From an uncultured Anaerolineales bacterium (lineage in GTDB: Bacteria > Chloroflexota > Anaerolineae > Anaerolineales > UBA11858): DNA of 64,000 bases. Under the pieces are notes generated by a model. It saw only the letters and a list, made by a program, of their open reading frames with translations, was not told the DNA's origin and did not search any database. This document shows positions 39-37,615 of this stretch, piece by piece; the first letter of the stretch is position 1; each line of letters starts with the position of its first letter. The stretch spans positions 130 through 64,129 of the forward strand of contig CAYORF010000002.1 in the NCBI GenBank assembly GCA_964406305.1. Reading direction: 5' to 3'. The position numbers were made by a program, and so were the translations under genes.

Positions 39-103
39 TGGACGGTATTGGACTCGAACCAATGACCTTTGTGATGTCAACGCAACGCTCTAACCAGCTG
101 AGA
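39..103 (-). pseudogene. tRNA-Val(GAC)-like 3' fragment. D-arm, anticodon arm, variable loop, T-arm and 3' acceptor strand are present; the 5' acceptor strand is missing.
   Basis: The reverse complement reads tCTC-AGCTGGTTA-GAGC-g-TTGCG-TTGACAT-CACAA-AGGTC-ATTGG-TTCGAGT-CCAAT-ACCGTCC-A. No GGACGGT partner for the 3' acceptor strand lies upstream. The anticodon stem has one C-A mismatch. Confidence 0.55.
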
Positions 104-141
104 TGTCTCAAATACTATAATCAGCATGTTCAATAAATTTT

Positions 142-158
142 AAATAAATATTCCTACT
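142..158. repeat. 17-bp direct repeat AAATAAATATTCCTACT; left copy of the target-site duplication of IS copy 1
   Basis: The identical 17-mer recurs at 1556..1572, immediately outside the other IS end. Confidence 0.8.
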
Positions 159-1555
159 GTTAGGCAAAGATGAAAACTGGACACCTATAAAGTTCAAAAG
201 TGGACACTGAATCCCTGCAAAGGAAGGGAGGCAGAATGTACCATTTTACTGTTCCACCAGATACGGATATCCATGAGCTGCTTTGTTTCATTAGGCACGA
301 GATGGACACCTACATATTTAAGCAAAGGGACATTAGGAACCTCAATGATATGTTTGAATAGAGAAATCCGACGGTAACTATTGACCCGGCGTTTTTCTCT
401 AAGACAGAATACATCTTTCGGCGAAGTATAGGGCGGTGGTAAGGTTAGTTTGCGGAAGAGGCTGTTTCCGGATTTCTTAGCTTTTTCAAAACGAATCTGA
501 GGAATTTCACCAGTGGTTGAATGCACTTGGTGATTGTTGTAACGGTCAAGCTCAGCTTTCAAGACACTGCGGACTTCATTTAGCTTGGATAGTTTTTCAT
601 AAACACAAGTGCGGACGATGCGGTCCTGCAGCCAGCGATAAGGTCTTTCAACTTTTCCTTTTGCCTGTGGGGAAAGAGCATAGCTGACATCCACACCCAG
701 AATGCGCATCATCTTGCGCCACTGAGTATCGACATCATCGGTCTCCAGCACATGTTTACGCCAGACACTGTCTCTGCCTTGAACGAAACGAAACACACGT
801 AGGGAATCAACATAGTACCGCAAGGGAAGACCGTAGCGCTGGCTCAAGGCCTGGATCGCCTGAATATGGGCCCAGGTGGTCTCCCTGGGAACGAAATCAG
901 CATACAGTAGCTTGCGGCTGAAGTCATCAATCGAAGTGATCAGAGTCCACTTCTCCTTCGCGAGAGGGGACCACTTATGTGTGGAAGCATCATGCTGGAT
1001 TAGCGCACCGATGGATGCTGTTAACACTTCCCGATCATGAGTTTTTCTCTTTTTTCGGGGTTTGTGGCAGTCAAGGTTTTTAGCCCGATTTATGATGGTC
1101 GTCACAGACACCTGAATACCTTTCTCTTTCAATCGATCTTTCATCGCTGAGTAGTTAAACCCCGAGATTGGCAGGTCAGGATCTTCAACAACGGCTTTCT
1201 CTTGAAGTAAAGCTTTCTCGATCTCTTTTTCTGCTCCTGGTGAGATCCTGGCGTGCGTTTTTCGTTGATAGGCAATTGTAAAATGATTTGGATTGCTTCG
1301 ATATTCTTTCAACAAGTCGAAGAAGCGTGACTTGCCAATCCCTATCATTTCTTGAAGATCAGCTCTGCCAACCCGTCCTTGACAATAACTCTGGAATAGA
1401 AGTTTGATTTGTTCATCTGTGAAACGTTTGTGGAGCTGTGACATGGGTTCCTCCAGTTTGTATTGGAGGAGAAATCGTATATTATCCCTTAGTTCCTGTC
1501 AAAACCAGGTGTCCACTTTCAAGCGTAAACTGTCCACTTTTGAAGTTTAAATAAC
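159..1555 (-). mobile_element. Complete insertion sequence (about 1.4 kb) with one rve/DDE transposase gene
   Basis: The ends are GTTA...TAAC. The terminal inverted repeats are imperfect and about 25 bp long. Each end also carries a second subterminal AAAGTGGACAC motif. The element is flanked by a 17-bp direct repeat. Confidence 0.85.
194..1444 (-). CDS. DDE transposase, retroviral-integrase (rve) type, with an N-terminal HTH
   Basis: 416-aa ORF. Candidate catalytic residues lie in IQHDAS, YYVDSLRVF and PQAKGKVERPYRWLQDR (the K-x-E-R signature of rve enzymes). Two paralogs lie at 34826..36076 and 36207..37457. Confidence 0.85.
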   Translation of the reverse strand: MSQLHKRFTDEQIKLLFQSYCQGRVGRADLQEMIGIGKSRFFDLLKEYRSNPNHFTIAYQRKTHARISPGAEKEIEKALLQEKAVVEDPDLPISGFNYSAMKDRLKEKGIQVSVTTIINRAKNLDCHKPRKKRKTHDREVLTASIGALIQHDASTHKWSPLAKEKWTLITSIDDFSRKLLYADFVPRETTWAHIQAIQALSQRYGLPLRYYVDSLRVFRFVQGRDSVWRKHVLETDDVDTQWRKMMRILGVDVSYALSPQAKGKVERPYRWLQDRIVRTCVYEKLSKLNEVRSVLKAELDRYNNHQVHSTTGEIPQIRFEKAKKSGNSLFRKLTLPPPYTSPKDVFCLREKRRVNSYRRISLFKHIIEVPNVPLLKYVGVHLVPNETKQLMDIRIWWNSKMVHSASLPLQGFSVHF

Positions 1556-1572
1556 AAATAAATATTCCTACT
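1556..1572. repeat. 17-bp direct repeat AAATAAATATTCCTACT; right copy of the target-site duplication
   Basis: Identical to 142..158. Its last T is the first T of the TTGACA -35 hexamer. Confidence 0.8.
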
Positions 1573-1600
1573 TGACAGATGTTGATTAAGTCCATATAAT
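1572..1600 (+). promoter_or_regulatory. Sigma-70 consensus promoter of the ilv-leu operon
   Basis: TTGACA (1572-1577), a 17-nt spacer, then TATAAT (1595-1600). Confidence 0.6.
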
Positions 1601-34014: not shown

Positions 34015-34380
34015 ATCAATGACCCAACATGATCTTATCGGAATAATGATCCTCCGCTTAAGATTGTGATGGGTCTATGATAGTGGGCGGTATTAGACAG
34101 ATCTAGAACCGTTTTTGGACTTAGGCGCTCATTTTCCACCACAACTTTTTTCAATCAACTAACGGCTTGCGTTACTTGCCCTGGAGCGGGGAGTGTGAAG
34201 CTGTCCCCTGAGAAATTGGTTGAGGCGTGAAAATGCATGAATCCGACCCAGAATCCCCAGCGTCAGGTGCACGCTTTGTTGGCCTAAATCGCACACACCG
34301 AGAGATGATATTGTCGTTCCGTCTTACTGTATCTCCTCAGCCGGAAAGCATAATTCGACAGTGTTACTCTTGAGGTCGGA

Positions 34381-34661
34381 GAGATTGGCAGGTCAGGATC
34401 TTCAACAACGGCTTTCTCTTGAAGTAAAGCTTTCTCGATCTCTTTTTCTGCTCCTGGTGAGATCCTGGCGTGCGTTTTTCGTTGATAGGCAATTGTAAAA
34501 TGATTTGGATTGCTTCGATATTCTTTCAACAAGTCGAAGAAGCGTGACTTGCCAATCCCTATCATTTCTTGAAGATCAGCTCTGCCAACCCGTCCTTGAC
34601 AATAACTCTGGAATAGAAGTTTGATTTGTTCATCTGTGAAACGTTTGTGGAGCTGTGACAT
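34381..34661 (-). pseudogene. Transposase gene fragment (first 94 codons)
   Basis: The N-terminal 94 aa of track ORF 34284..34661 are identical to the 194..1444 transposase. The remaining 31 aa come from unrelated DNA. Confidence 0.85.
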
Positions 34662-34772
34662 GGGTTCCTCCAGTTTGTATTGGAGGAGAAATCGTATATT
34701 ATCCCTTAGTTCCTGTCAAAACCAGGTGTCCACTTTCAAGCGTAAACTGTCCACTTTTGAAGTTTAAATAAC
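34381..34772 (-). mobile_element. Truncated IS remnant (transposase-proximal 392 bp only)
   Basis: Read by eye, it is base-for-base identical to 1164..1555 of IS copy 1. Identity stops abruptly at 34381. Confidence 0.85.
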
Positions 34773-34773
34773 A

Positions 34774-34790
34774 AGTCCTAAAAGAGTGGT
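34774..34790. repeat. 17-bp repeat AGTCCTAAAAGAGTGGT, copy 1 of 3
   Basis: Lies between the truncated IS end (..AAATAACA) and the start of the next IS (GTTAGG..). Confidence 0.85.
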
Positions 34791-36154
34791 GTTAGGGAAA
34801 CTTGAAAAGTGAACACTTATAAACTTCAAAAGTGAACCCTAAAACCCATCAATGGCAGCAATACAGCGTGCACCATTTTTTCACTCCACCATATTCGAAT
34901 ATGCATCACCCGCTTAGCTGTGTCCGGAACCATGTGAACATCGACATATTCTCGTAGAGGCACTTTGGGTACTTCAATCTCATGATTGAATAGAGAAATT
35001 CTGCGGTATCCATTGATCATCCTTTGAGTGCGCAAGCAGAACACATCTAATGGCGAAGTGTAGGGCTTAGGAAGCGAGAACTTCCGGAAAAGACTGTTCC
35101 CAGATTTCAGAGCTCGTTCAAAACGAATGCTTGGGATTTCACGGGTAGTCGAATGGACCTGATGGTTGTTATAACGGTCGATCTCATCTCTCAAGACACC
35201 CCTACAATCCTCAAACTCAGATATCTCTTCATAAATACAAGTTCTCACCATGCGGTCCTGCAGCCAGCGGTAAGGTCTCTCGACCTTGCCTTTTGCTTGA
35301 GGGGAAAGAGCGTAGGAGACATCCACGTTTATCAGCCGCATCATCTTGCCCCACTGAGTATCCACGTCATCGGTTTCGAGAACATGTCTTCGCCAAAAGC
35401 TATCCCTTCCCTGAACGAAACGAAATACCCGCAAGGAGTCCACATAGTAACGCAAGGGCAATCCATAGGTCATGATCAAGGCCTGGGTAGACTGGATGTG
35501 AGTCCAGGTGGTCTCCGCAGGGAAAAAGTCAGCGAAAAGGATCTTACGACTGTAGTCATCGATGGAGGTAATCAAGGTCCACTTCTTTTTGGACAGGGGA
35601 GACCACATATGAAGGGAGGCGTCATGCTGTACCAATGCACCAATGGAAGCGGTCAATACCTCACGGTCATGAACCTTTCTTTTCCTGCGAGGTTTGTGGC
35701 AGTCCAGTTTCTTGGCCCGGTCAATGATGGTGGTGATGGACACTTCGATCCCTTCCTTATAAAGTCGATCTCTTAGTGCTGTGTAGTTATATCCAGAGAT
35801 CGGCAAATCTGGGTTTTCTATAATCTCTTTCTCCCGTAGTAATGCCTTCTCAACCTCGGATTCCACTTCAGCAGACAATTTGGCAGGAGATTTCCTCTGA
35901 TAAGCGATGGAGAAAGTCTCTGGCCCTTGCCGATAGGTTTTCAGCAAGGCGAAAAACCGTGTTTTACCGATACCCAGAATCTCCTGAATATCGGCTCTTC
36001 TTATCTTGCCCTGGCTATACCTTTGCAGTAATACCTTGATCTGTTCAATAGTGAAGCTCTTATGTAGCTGACCCATTGATTTCTCCTTTTTTCAAGGATA
36101 AATCTATCAGGGTTTGGTAGTAGTGTAGGTGTTCACTTTTCAACTTTATATAAC
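34791..36154 (-). mobile_element. Complete IS; the most diverged member of the same family
   Basis: The ends are GTTAGGGAAAC...TTTATATAAC. Subterminal AAAGTGAAC(A/C) motifs are present. The same 17-mer flanks both sides. Confidence 0.85.
34826..36076 (-). CDS. DDE transposase (rve type), paralog
   Basis: 416 aa, colinear with the other two transposases. The HDAS, YYVDSLRVF and GKVERPYRWLQDR blocks are conserved. Confidence 0.85.
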   Translation of the reverse strand: MGQLHKSFTIEQIKVLLQRYSQGKIRRADIQEILGIGKTRFFALLKTYRQGPETFSIAYQRKSPAKLSAEVESEVEKALLREKEIIENPDLPISGYNYTALRDRLYKEGIEVSITTIIDRAKKLDCHKPRRKRKVHDREVLTASIGALVQHDASLHMWSPLSKKKWTLITSIDDYSRKILFADFFPAETTWTHIQSTQALIMTYGLPLRYYVDSLRVFRFVQGRDSFWRRHVLETDDVDTQWGKMMRLINVDVSYALSPQAKGKVERPYRWLQDRMVRTCIYEEISEFEDCRGVLRDEIDRYNNHQVHSTTREIPSIRFERALKSGNSLFRKFSLPKPYTSPLDVFCLRTQRMINGYRRISLFNHEIEVPKVPLREYVDVHMVPDTAKRVMHIRIWWSEKMVHAVLLPLMGFRVHF

Positions 36155-36171
36155 AGTCCTAAAAGAGTGGT
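36155..36171. repeat. 17-bp repeat AGTCCTAAAAGAGTGGT, copy 2 of 3
   Basis: Lies between the two complete IS elements. Confidence 0.85.
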
Positions 36172-37570
36172 GTTAGCAAAAGATGAAAAGTGGACACCTA
36201 TAAAGTTCAAAAGTGGACACTGAATCCCTGCAAAGGCAGGGAGACAGAATGAACCATCTTCTTGTTCCACCAGATGCGGATGTCCATAAGATCCTTCACT
36301 TCATCAGGCACCAGATGGATGTCAACAAGTTTCTGTAGAGGAACATTAGGGACTTCAATAACGTGTTTGAATAGAGAAATCCGACGGTATCTATTTACCC
36401 GGCGTTGCTCTCTAATACAAAAAACATCTTTCGGCGAAGTATAGGGCGGAGGTAGAGTTAGCTTGCGGAAGAGGCTGTTTCCCGATATCCTGGCTTTTTC
36501 AAACCGGACCTGGGGAATTTCACCGGTGGTTGAATGCACCTGGTGGTTGTTGTAACGGTCAAGTTCAGCTTTCAAAACACTGCGGACCTCATCTTTTTGG
36601 GATAGTTTTTCGTAAACGCATGTGCGGACGATACGATCCTGCAGCCAGCGATAGGGTCTCTCAACTTTGCCTTTTGCCTGCGGGGAAAGAGCATAACTGA
36701 CATCGACACCCAGCAGGCGCATCATCTTTCCCCATTGAGTATCAACATCGTCAGTTTCAAGCACATGTTTGCGCCAAACACTATCTCTACCCTGAACAAA
36801 ACGGAATACACGTAAAGAATCAACATAGTACCGCAAAGGAATCCCATATTGCTGGCACAGGGCCTGGGCCGCCCGAATATGGGCCCAGGTAGTCTCCCTG
36901 GAAACGAAGTCGGCATACAGGAGCTTGCGGCTGAAATCATCAATCGAAGTGATCAGGGTCCATTTCTCCTCCGCAAAGGGGGACCACTTATGTGTGGAAG
37001 CATCATGTTGGATTAGCGCACCTATGGATGAAGTTAGCACTTCCCGGTCATGAGCTTTTCTCTTTTTTCGCGGTTTATGACAATCAAGCTTTTTTGCCCG
37101 ATTGATGATGGTTGGTACAGAGACTTCGATACCGTTCTCTTTCAAGCGATCCTTCATCGCTGAGTAGTTGTATCCCGAGATTGGCAGGTCAGGATCTTCA
37201 ACAACGGCTTTCTCCTGAAGTAACGCTTTTTCTATCTCTGCTTCTGCTCCAGGTGAGATCCTGGCGTGTGTTTTCCGTTGATAGGCAATCGTGAAATGAT
37301 CTGGATCGTTTCGATATTCTTTCAGTAAAACGAAGAAGTGCGACTTGCCAATACCTATCATTTCTTGGAGATCAGTTCTGCTCATTTGTCCCTGGCGGTA
37401 ACTCTTGAATAAAAGCTTGATTTGTTCATCGGTGAAACGTTTGTGGAGCTGTGACATGGGTTCCTCCAGTTTCTATTGGAGGAGAAATCGTATATTATCC
37501 CTTCAAGCTTGTCAAAATCAGGTGTCCAGTTTTCAGGTTTAAACTGTCCACTTTTGAATTTTAAATAACA
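36172..37570 (-). mobile_element. Complete IS; close relative of IS copy 1
   Basis: The ends are GTTAGCAAAAG...TTTTAAATAACA, with the same subterminal TGGACA motifs as copy 1. Confidence 0.85.
36207..37457 (-). CDS. DDE transposase (rve type), paralog
   Basis: 416 aa. It is collinear with the 194..1444 protein and differs by scattered substitutions. Confidence 0.85.
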   Translation of the reverse strand: MSQLHKRFTDEQIKLLFKSYRQGQMSRTDLQEMIGIGKSHFFVLLKEYRNDPDHFTIAYQRKTHARISPGAEAEIEKALLQEKAVVEDPDLPISGYNYSAMKDRLKENGIEVSVPTIINRAKKLDCHKPRKKRKAHDREVLTSSIGALIQHDASTHKWSPFAEEKWTLITSIDDFSRKLLYADFVSRETTWAHIRAAQALCQQYGIPLRYYVDSLRVFRFVQGRDSVWRKHVLETDDVDTQWGKMMRLLGVDVSYALSPQAKGKVERPYRWLQDRIVRTCVYEKLSQKDEVRSVLKAELDRYNNHQVHSTTGEIPQVRFEKARISGNSLFRKLTLPPPYTSPKDVFCIREQRRVNRYRRISLFKHVIEVPNVPLQKLVDIHLVPDEVKDLMDIRIWWNKKMVHSVSLPLQGFSVHF

Positions 37571-37587
37571 AGTCCTAAAAGAGTGGT
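37571..37587. repeat. 17-bp repeat AGTCCTAAAAGAGTGGT, copy 3 of 3
   Basis: Its last T is the first T of TTGACA (37587-37592). Confidence 0.85.
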
Positions 37588-37615
37588 TGACAATTTTTAT
37601 TCTTTATGTTAACCT
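37587..37615 (+). promoter_or_regulatory. Candidate promoter of the arg/lys operon
   Basis: TTGACA, a 17-nt spacer, then TAACCT (a weak -10). Confidence 0.4.

Follow-up and report, generated by a model that had tools for sequence, protein, structure and literature searches.

The window analysed here, 64,000 nucleotides of contig CAYORF010000002.1 from an uncultured Anaerolineales bacterium (assembly GCA_964406305.1), opens with an insertion sequence (IS) that stands directly in front of the ilv operon promoter, such that the duplicated target DNA ends exactly where the −35 hexamer begins. The locus raises the question of whether this position is accidental or whether the element seeks out promoters, and, in the latter case, what it is that reads the −35 box. 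As will be argued below, the IS, which fits the ISTde1 type of the IS1202 family by its sequence, very probably selects sites next to promoter −35 elements for its insertion.

The IS is intact and has a length of 1399 bp (158–1556), with the termini TGTTAG...TAACA. The 17-mer AAATAAATATTCCTACT is present in two identical copies, at 142–158 and 1556–1572, as given in the preliminary description of this DNA. Whether the A at 142/1556 and the T at 158/1572 are counted with the IS or with the duplication is a matter of choice, and the latter is accordingly 15–17 bp long. Sequence comparison places its unambiguous part, the 15 bp AATAAATATTCCTAC, at 143–157 on the left and at 1557–1571 on the right, with no base between it and the −35 hexamer. 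In the orientation of the transposase gene, the sequence starts with TGT(T/C)AT... and finishes with ...CTAACA, here as in all relatives, and TGT...ACA termini are also given for the IS1202 family by both papers on the family (bioRxiv 10.1101/2022.12.17.520857; PMC10132070). Since the relatives and the family literature agree in this respect, we take the element to be 158–1556 and the duplication to be 15 bp, and the ends proposed at first, GTTA...TAAC, have to be replaced by TGT...ACA.

The two ends have in common an imperfect repeat of 27 bp (19 of 27 positions identical; TGTTAT... and TGTTAG...), with GTGGACA at positions 20–26. The left end (IRL; 1506–1556, minus strand) consists of TGTTATTTAAACTTCAAAAGTGGACAG and then a second unit of ~22 bp, TTTACGCTTGAAAGTGGACAC, while the right end (IRR; 158–207, plus strand) consists of the terminal repeat TGTTAGGCAAAGATGAAAACTGGACAC and then a second inner unit ending in TTCAAAAGTGGACAC. 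The second unit is located 22 bp further inward, and the IRL of relatives has two to four such units, which are putative transposase-binding units.

The right copy of the duplication runs into a promoter that matches the consensus in 12 of 12 positions, just as first reported, with TTGACA at 1572–1577, a spacer of 17 nt at 1578–1594 and TATAAT at 1595–1600 (plus strand). The preliminary description was right in that the core promoter is left intact, but not in that everything upstream of the −35 box is replaced, because 15–17 bp of native DNA are kept, to about −51. The UP-proximal region is retained, and only DNA beyond about −51, that is, at distal UP-element or activator positions, has been displaced at ilv.

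All four IS matches of the 3.04-Mb assembly fall inside the window. The remaining three, all on the minus strand, form a head-to-tail array at the arg operon promoter, separated by (A)GTCCTAAAAGAGTGG. The outermost member is a truncated copy (34381–34773) comprising the IRL-proximal 393 nt, which is 100% identical to the copy at ilv. The second (34790–36155; 1366 bp, 70% identical to the ilv copy, open reading frame (ORF) intact) is flanked by AGTCCTAAAAGAGTGG at 34774–34789 and GTCCTAAAAGAGTGG at 36156–36170. The third (36171–37570; 1400 bp, 86% identical, ORF intact) is followed by AGTCCTAAAAGAGTGG at 37571–37586 and then by the arg promoter, TTGACA-17-TAACCT (37587–37615, plus strand; TTGACA at 37587–37592). 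The geometry is the same as at ilv, as had been pointed out for 37571–37592, and it recurs in about 50 relatives. Since the three diverged copies each have their own duplication, they represent three separate insertions into one target, and the difference in the duplicated sequence between the ilv and arg sites shows that it comes from the target and not from the element.

To quantify the geometry, both end types were scanned in relatives from the same genus and in 78 loci of a genome collection, mostly metagenome-assembled genomes (MAGs) of Anaerolineales and other Chloroflexota. This gave 58 distinct, non-tandem IRL flanks, with 45 IRR flanks of the same elements as an internal control. The exact hexamer TGTCAA, the complement of TTGACA, is found 13–17 bp from the IRL tip in 41 of the 58 flanks, the distance being 15 bp in 19 cases, 16 bp in 18, 17 bp in two and 13–14 bp in two, compared to 0 of the 45 IRR flanks (Fisher P 2.8e-13). 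When one mismatch is allowed, 52 of the 58 IRL flanks qualify. The occurrence of TGTCAA at 15 or 16 bp, in 37 of 58 IRL flanks, can be set against a per-site expectation of ~5e-4 (binomial P ~5e-107). The duplication was measured in 30 two-flank pairings, some of them from the window's own tandem array, and was found to be 15 bp in 16 cases and 16 bp in 11, with a range of 14–17 bp; it starts right after ...TCAA in all elements but one (L041). The other copies thus mostly have duplications of 15–16 bp next to a shared hexamer, rather than short or no duplications and unrelated flanks.

Two of the loci deserve a comment. At L039, TGTCAA is located 26 bp, not 16 bp, from the tip, and the flank holds a 10-bp tandem duplication (GAATTTATTT twice); judging from this sequence, the exception is a later tandem duplication inside the flank. 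At L043, another ISTde1-type element has left a solo end, TGTTAGGGCAAAGTAGTAATGTCC, downstream of the IS (~2790–2830), directly past the IRR-side duplication, with no transposase behind it. Two unrelated members of the family have here made use of one promoter.

It is important to establish that the targeted hexamers belong to promoters. A −10 box with at least 5 of 6 matches to TATAAT, at a spacer of 16–18 nt, follows 29 of the 52 targeted hexamers (56%), and one with at least 4 of 6 matches follows 83% of them; the spacer is 17 nt in 39 of the 52 sites. The 5/6 rate for all 1552 genomic TTGACA is 6%. For the 301 TTGACA outside ORFs of at least 120 aa, which constitute a crude, ORF-based intergenic background, the rates are 24% (5/6) and 44% (4/6), and the targeted sites differ from them with P 7.7e-6 and 1.4e-7, respectively. 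Five of the targeted promoters are located immediately upstream of tRNA genes (L060, L070, L074, L099, L091). In the target logo derived from the collected copies, only c-TTGACA-a and TAnaaT carry information, and the duplicated 15–16 bp are uninformative. Among the 52 sites, the duplication ends, right before TTGACA, with C or G in 44 cases, and A follows the hexamer in 34. The extended −35 consensus of E. coli promoter compilations agrees with both preferences.

Uninterrupted versions of both targets could be found in relatives. In G021, which is of the same genus, the ilv promoter reads aatttaataATTCGTAC-TTGACA-17-TATAAT-CCCGCCTAAT, the upstream part being homologous to the duplicated segment, and G049 and G022 have an arg promoter that is free of any insertion. 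At ilv as well as at arg, the relatives have a single homologous sequence, and it follows from these empty sites that neither the 17-mer nor the hexamer is part of the element. The preliminary description had taken the long duplication as real target DNA, while allowing that it might belong to the IS; the first of these is borne out by the comparison and the second is contradicted. No transposase homologue was found in the G049 and G021 assemblies. The contig that carries the ilv promoter of G049 (L115, G049:C125) terminates 16 nt before TTGACA, at the point expected for the start of an IS end, and this hints that the ilv site may be occupied in G049 too.

Next, we consider the protein that carries out the reaction. 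The transposase gene (194–1444, minus strand) encodes 416 aa and is the only ORF of at least 60 aa on the coding strand of the 1399-bp element; there is no gene for a target selector of the TnsC/IstB/MuB type. The Pfam match is rve_3, albeit weak, in line with the original assignment as a 1.4-kb DDE insertion sequence with an rve transposase. The best NCBIfam match is the ISNCY_2 transposase model NF033594 (147 bits, E 8e-43), which is below the curated cut-off of 250 bits. The scores of the IS481 profile NF033577 (57.6 bits) and of IS21 are far lower. Membership in the IS481 family, where the duplication is usually 4–6 bp and ~15 bp in some members, was rejected, as the profile cut-off of 224 bits is missed. 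An alignment of 29 homologues shows D152, D173-D174, D213, E266 and Q273 (E+7) to be invariant, and the signature of the IS1202 family is a DDE triad with two extra Asp between D1 and D2 and a Gln at E+7 (Siguier et al., bioRxiv 10.1101/2022.12.17.520857).

The AlphaFold2 (AF2) model of the transposase, with a predicted local distance difference test (pLDDT) score of 80.7, has helices at residues 10–123, an RNaseH core at 149–305 and beta strands at 348–408, corresponding to a fold of two helix-turn-helix (HTH) domains, RNaseH and beta-barrel; a loop of low confidence, residues 214–238, is located between D213 and E266. The top Foldseek matches of the model are IstA, TnsB and MuA (E 1e-15 to 1e-10), a resemblance that is confined to the transposase and fits the TnsB-based model of an IS1202-family transposase by Harmer and Hall (PMC10132070).

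The provisional assignment to the ISTde1 subgroup, formerly part of the IS1202 group of ISNCY, is made because the length, the single ORF, the termini, the multi-site ends and the duplication all fit. Elements of this subgroup are ~1.4–1.5 kb long with a single DDE transposase (in the family ~394–507 aa), the DD pair between the first two catalytic Asp and the Gln at E+7, and they have TGT...ACA termini, imperfect inverted repeats of ~25 bp with a conserved block near position 20, and inner binding units. They make target duplications of 15–17 bp and have been recorded in Chloroflexi (bioRxiv 10.1101/2022.12.17.520857; PMC10132070), and the link drawn in the preliminary description to a subgroup of IS1202/ISNCY with long duplications was thus correct. 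The present element differs from the subgroup in its end motif, GAAAAGTGRAC instead of the usual (G/A)AAATGTC(C/A), and in its ISNCY_2 score below the cut-off. The IS at ilv can be regarded as intact and probably active on the basis of its sequence.

The two family papers, both from 2023, found no target for the groups with long duplications (bioRxiv 10.1101/2022.12.17.520857; PMC10132070), and targeting is reported by Siguier et al. only for the 5-bp group (bioRxiv 10.1101/2022.12.17.520857). A full-text literature search, with most subscription journals outside its reach, found no report of −35 or promoter targeting either. The precise target described here is, however, visible also in published data. 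In Supplementary Table 1 of Siguier et al., the left flank ends with CAA in 22 of the 34 rows read for the ISTde1 group (15–18 bp repeats) and with GTCAA in 14, and in three more rows a promoter of the TTGACA type abuts the right repeat; these rows span Firmicutes, Synergistetes, Atribacterota, Acidobacteria, Proteobacteria and others. The same rule is followed by 10 of 16 rows for the IS1202 subgroup (26–29 bp repeats). IS1202 of S. pneumoniae itself has TGTCAA, a 28-bp repeat and TATAAT 16 nt beyond. All rows of the published tables were counted by eye.

A complete genome gives the same picture. G036, a 6.4-Mb genome of the same order, has 12 copies of a typical ISTde1-type IS with the IRL TGTTAGCCCAAAGTAGTAATGTCC, and in nine of these a −35-like hexamer abuts a duplication of 15–16 bp at the IRL. 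Five of the nine hexamers are degenerate (TTGCTG, TTGGCG, TTGCAC, TTGACG and TTTACC), yet they have a −10 box of at least 5/6 at a spacer of 16–17. Two copies have the same geometry at the IRR side, and one has none. The two IRR-side promoters that abut the duplication are TTGACA-16-TATAAT and TTGACA-16-TACAAT (L133 and L136; G036:C1:1208786-1210556 and 5643258-5645028). In both long-duplication branches, one joint would accordingly lie at the −35 edge and the other ~16 or ~27 bp upstream; the duplication classes of the family differ by about one helical turn (Kojima, PMC10045372).

We now describe the mechanism that these observations suggest. The boundaries, the duplications, the rule for distance and orientation and the empty sites can be read directly from the DNA, and so can the fact that the sites are promoters and that the target is regenerated. 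As to the steps themselves, strand transfer of the IRR would take place at the upstream edge of the hexamer and the other transfer 15–16 bp further upstream, that is, the cuts would be staggered by 15–16 bp. After repair, the distance between the IRL and TTGACA would be one duplication length, with the transposase gene pointing away from the promoter. The hexamer and the adjoining 15–17 bp would be regenerated in this way, and the core promoter would survive. The cost to the host should be low, as in a safe-haven strategy, because the core promoter and 15–17 bp of native upstream DNA remain. The insertions at ilv and arg, where the core promoters and the downstream attenuators of the two operons are kept, are for this reason probably nearly neutral. 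A regenerated site would also be reusable, which would account for the three-copy tandem array at the arg promoter, and the occurrence of tandem arrays suggests that target immunity is absent.

As to the reader of the −35 box, the reading that we prefer is docking of the transpososome on a promoter to which region 4 of sigma-A or RNA polymerase (RNAP) is bound, and we see its chances as about even. It is based on the enrichment of −10 boxes, on the degenerate hexamers that nevertheless come with −10 boxes and on the tRNA promoters among the targets, and further on the constancy of the target while the end-binding motifs change, with the Xer-bound targets of the sister branch as a precedent. 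A wider version, namely that both long-duplication branches (ISTde1 with 15–17 bp and IS1202 with 26–29 bp) are guided by sigma-A region 4 or RNAP and cut at the −35 edge, as the sister branch does on XerC at dif, is put forward more tentatively. Readers of the −35 box other than sigma/RNAP or the transposase are improbable.

A number of points weigh against these interpretations. All of the evidence is comparative, and no transposition event was observed. The orientation rule appears strong but not absolute, since reversed cases are found in G036 (two of the 12 copies) and in several rows of the published tables. About 10% of the IRL flanks have no hexamer (L041, L048, L073, L090, L106). Most of the loci come from MAGs and some are kin, so that the flanks, although de-duplicated, are not fully independent. 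In addition, purifying selection against insertions in genes must add to the promoter enrichment and is not cleanly separable from targeting. With regard to guidance by sigma or RNAP, 71% of the targets have the exact hexamer, compared to a share of 5.6% among the best promoter-like sites found upstream of 994 genes of this genome, and direct DNA read-out would explain this closeness to the consensus equally well. Moreover, for the N-terminal 140 aa, a Pfam search with E up to 10 yielded no HTH or sigma-region-4 family, and when the N-terminal 135 aa were modelled separately with AF2 (pLDDT 72.9), no PDB fold, that of sigma region 4 included, was matched significantly, the best hits (E 0.5) being calmodulin, a Pax paired domain and the N-terminus of IstA. 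On a possible mimicry of sigma region 4 by the transposase, this search of a predicted structure is neutral, speaking neither for it nor against it.

The closest competitor to guidance by sigma or RNAP is that the targeting is real but that the transposase itself reads (c)TTGACA(a), for example via one of its two N-terminal HTH domains, with the −10 boxes and the tRNA genes being left by selection. We consider this a serious option, with chances a little under one half. In addition to the share of exact hexamers (41 of 58 in the clade), it would agree with the fact that the IS encodes no partner protein, and with the location of 1247 of the 1548 classified genomic TTGACA inside ORFs, where insertions would be purged. 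On the other hand, degenerate hexamers that retain only TTG are also used, and these have a good −10 box at the right spacing (G036 and the rows for ISPa130, ISTgr1 and ISCde4), and the targets are 2–4 times richer in −10 boxes than the TTGACA outside long ORFs. The target is furthermore constant across subgroups and phyla with differing end-binding motifs (AATGTCC, AATGTCA, AAGTGGAC), and the sister subgroup recognises sites that vary in sequence and are bound by Xer, according to both 2023 papers.

Another option considered was that there is no targeting, i.e. that insertion is near-random and only the copies upstream of promoters survive selection. Most TTGACA are indeed genic. Insertions in genes are deleterious, and intergenic survivors are to be expected. 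However, selection cannot fix a distance of 15–16 bp, one duplication length, in ~90% of the copies, nor can it impose one orientation (37 of 58 IRL against 0 of 45 IRR flanks) or yield three serial insertions at one site by elements that are 70–86% identical to the ilv copy, and this scenario is therefore very unlikely. Finally, the idea that TTGACA belongs to the element as an outward promoter or a longer end, as IS elements often carry outward −35 boxes, or that the pattern is an artefact of MAG assembly, given the many loci on MAG contigs and the truncated array member with its 100% identity to the ilv copy, has a negligible probability, since the IS tip and the hexamer are separated by the duplication, of which the far end has a second copy but no hexamer, relatives have the same promoters without any IS, the sequence past the hexamer consists of host-specific operon leaders and tRNA genes, and the rule holds in the complete genome G036 and in the complete chromosomes of the published table.

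It is instructive to compare the proposed targeting with known systems. The ISAba32/ISAjo2 subgroup, which targets dif/pdif/xrs sites, has the same arrangement of determinant, one duplication length and IRL in a fixed orientation, and its transposase also acts alone, without a partner of the TnsC/IstB/MuB type. There, however, the determinant is the XerC arm of the Xer site and the duplication is 5–6 bp, while here it is the −35 hexamer and 15–17 bp, about one helical turn more. With Tn7 at attTn7, and with TnsB, MuA and IstA, the present system shares the fold of the transposase, the multi-site ends with units of ~22 bp, the TG...CA termini and site-specific insertion into a safe haven. Tn7, Mu and IS21 differ in having a separate AAA+ target selector (TnsC, MuB, IstB) and duplications of 5 bp (IS21 4–8 bp), and Tn7 shows target immunity, whereas here one ORF, a duplication of 15–17 bp and repeated insertions at one site are found. 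Among eukaryotic elements, Ty3 of yeast is a retroelement that integrates at or just upstream of RNA polymerase III promoters. The same is true for TRE5-A of Dictyostelium (PMC9012585). The fixed short distance from the region of transcription start, the sparing of gene bodies and the frequent tRNA gene neighbours are common to these retroelements and the present IS, but the former are guided by TFIIIB/TFIIIC, while the latter is a bacterial DNA transposon at sigma-70-type promoters for which guidance by a protein is a hypothesis.

Some further features of the window should be mentioned. Downstream of the ilv promoter, an Ile/Leu/Val-rich leader ORF (1651–1773) and a terminator (1798–1825) precede ilvD, which starts at 1843; at arg, the promoter is likewise followed by a leader, a terminator and argG. 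The decamer after the ilv −10 box, CCTGCCTAAT (1601–1610), has a conserved counterpart, CCCGCCTAAT, in G021 and G049, whose homologous ilv promoters are ~75% identical overall, and may be a functional discriminator or start region. The truncated array member is cut on its left inside the transposase gene, and although it should be the oldest of the three by the insertion model, it is the one that is 100% identical to the ilv copy; it could be a recent deletion product or an assembly chimera in the MAG. In the 366 nt to its left (34015–34380), no plus-strand ORF of at least 60 aa was found.

Inside the element at ilv, the likely promoter of the transposase gene, TTGACA-17-TACGAT (1474–1502, minus strand), is located just inside the inner IRL binding unit. 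A TTGACA-type promoter is present at this place in 10 of 61 ends, all of them from close relatives, and the idea of a conserved self-target or autoregulatory site was discarded, as this is not a feature of the family. By the −35 rule this promoter would itself be a target; no nested copy was seen. At the left edge of the window, on the IRR side of the IS and outside the targeted promoter, there is a tRNA-like fragment (47–104, minus strand), probably Val-GAC by eye. It reaches 28.5 bits with the Rfam tRNA model (model positions 9–63), against a gathering score of 29, and ARAGORN called no tRNA at this edge. An explanation of this IS by an integrase att site was rejected on these grounds.

Before this analysis, the IS1202 family had been defined by two studies in 2023, with a target, the Xer sites, only for the 5-bp branch (bioRxiv 10.1101/2022.12.17.520857; PMC10132070). 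The present data, the published table among them, yield a simple rule for the long-duplication branches, by which the IS inserts upstream of a −35 hexamer, at a distance of one duplication length and mostly in the same orientation. If true, the rule would explain the tandem pile-ups and the frequent siting beside tRNA genes and operon promoters, and the elements would provide a free annotation marker of real promoters in poorly known phyla such as Chloroflexota and candidate phyla. They would also represent a compact single-protein system by which DNA could be placed in front of promoters, at a defined position and with the promoters left intact. The rule further poses the testable question of whether a promoter-bound sigma factor guides a DNA transposase. 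If guidance by sigma or RNAP is true, the family would be one of transposons that choose their targets by reading host proteins bound to DNA, and its long-duplication branches would be the first case in bacteria that parallels the targeting of Pol III promoters by Ty3.

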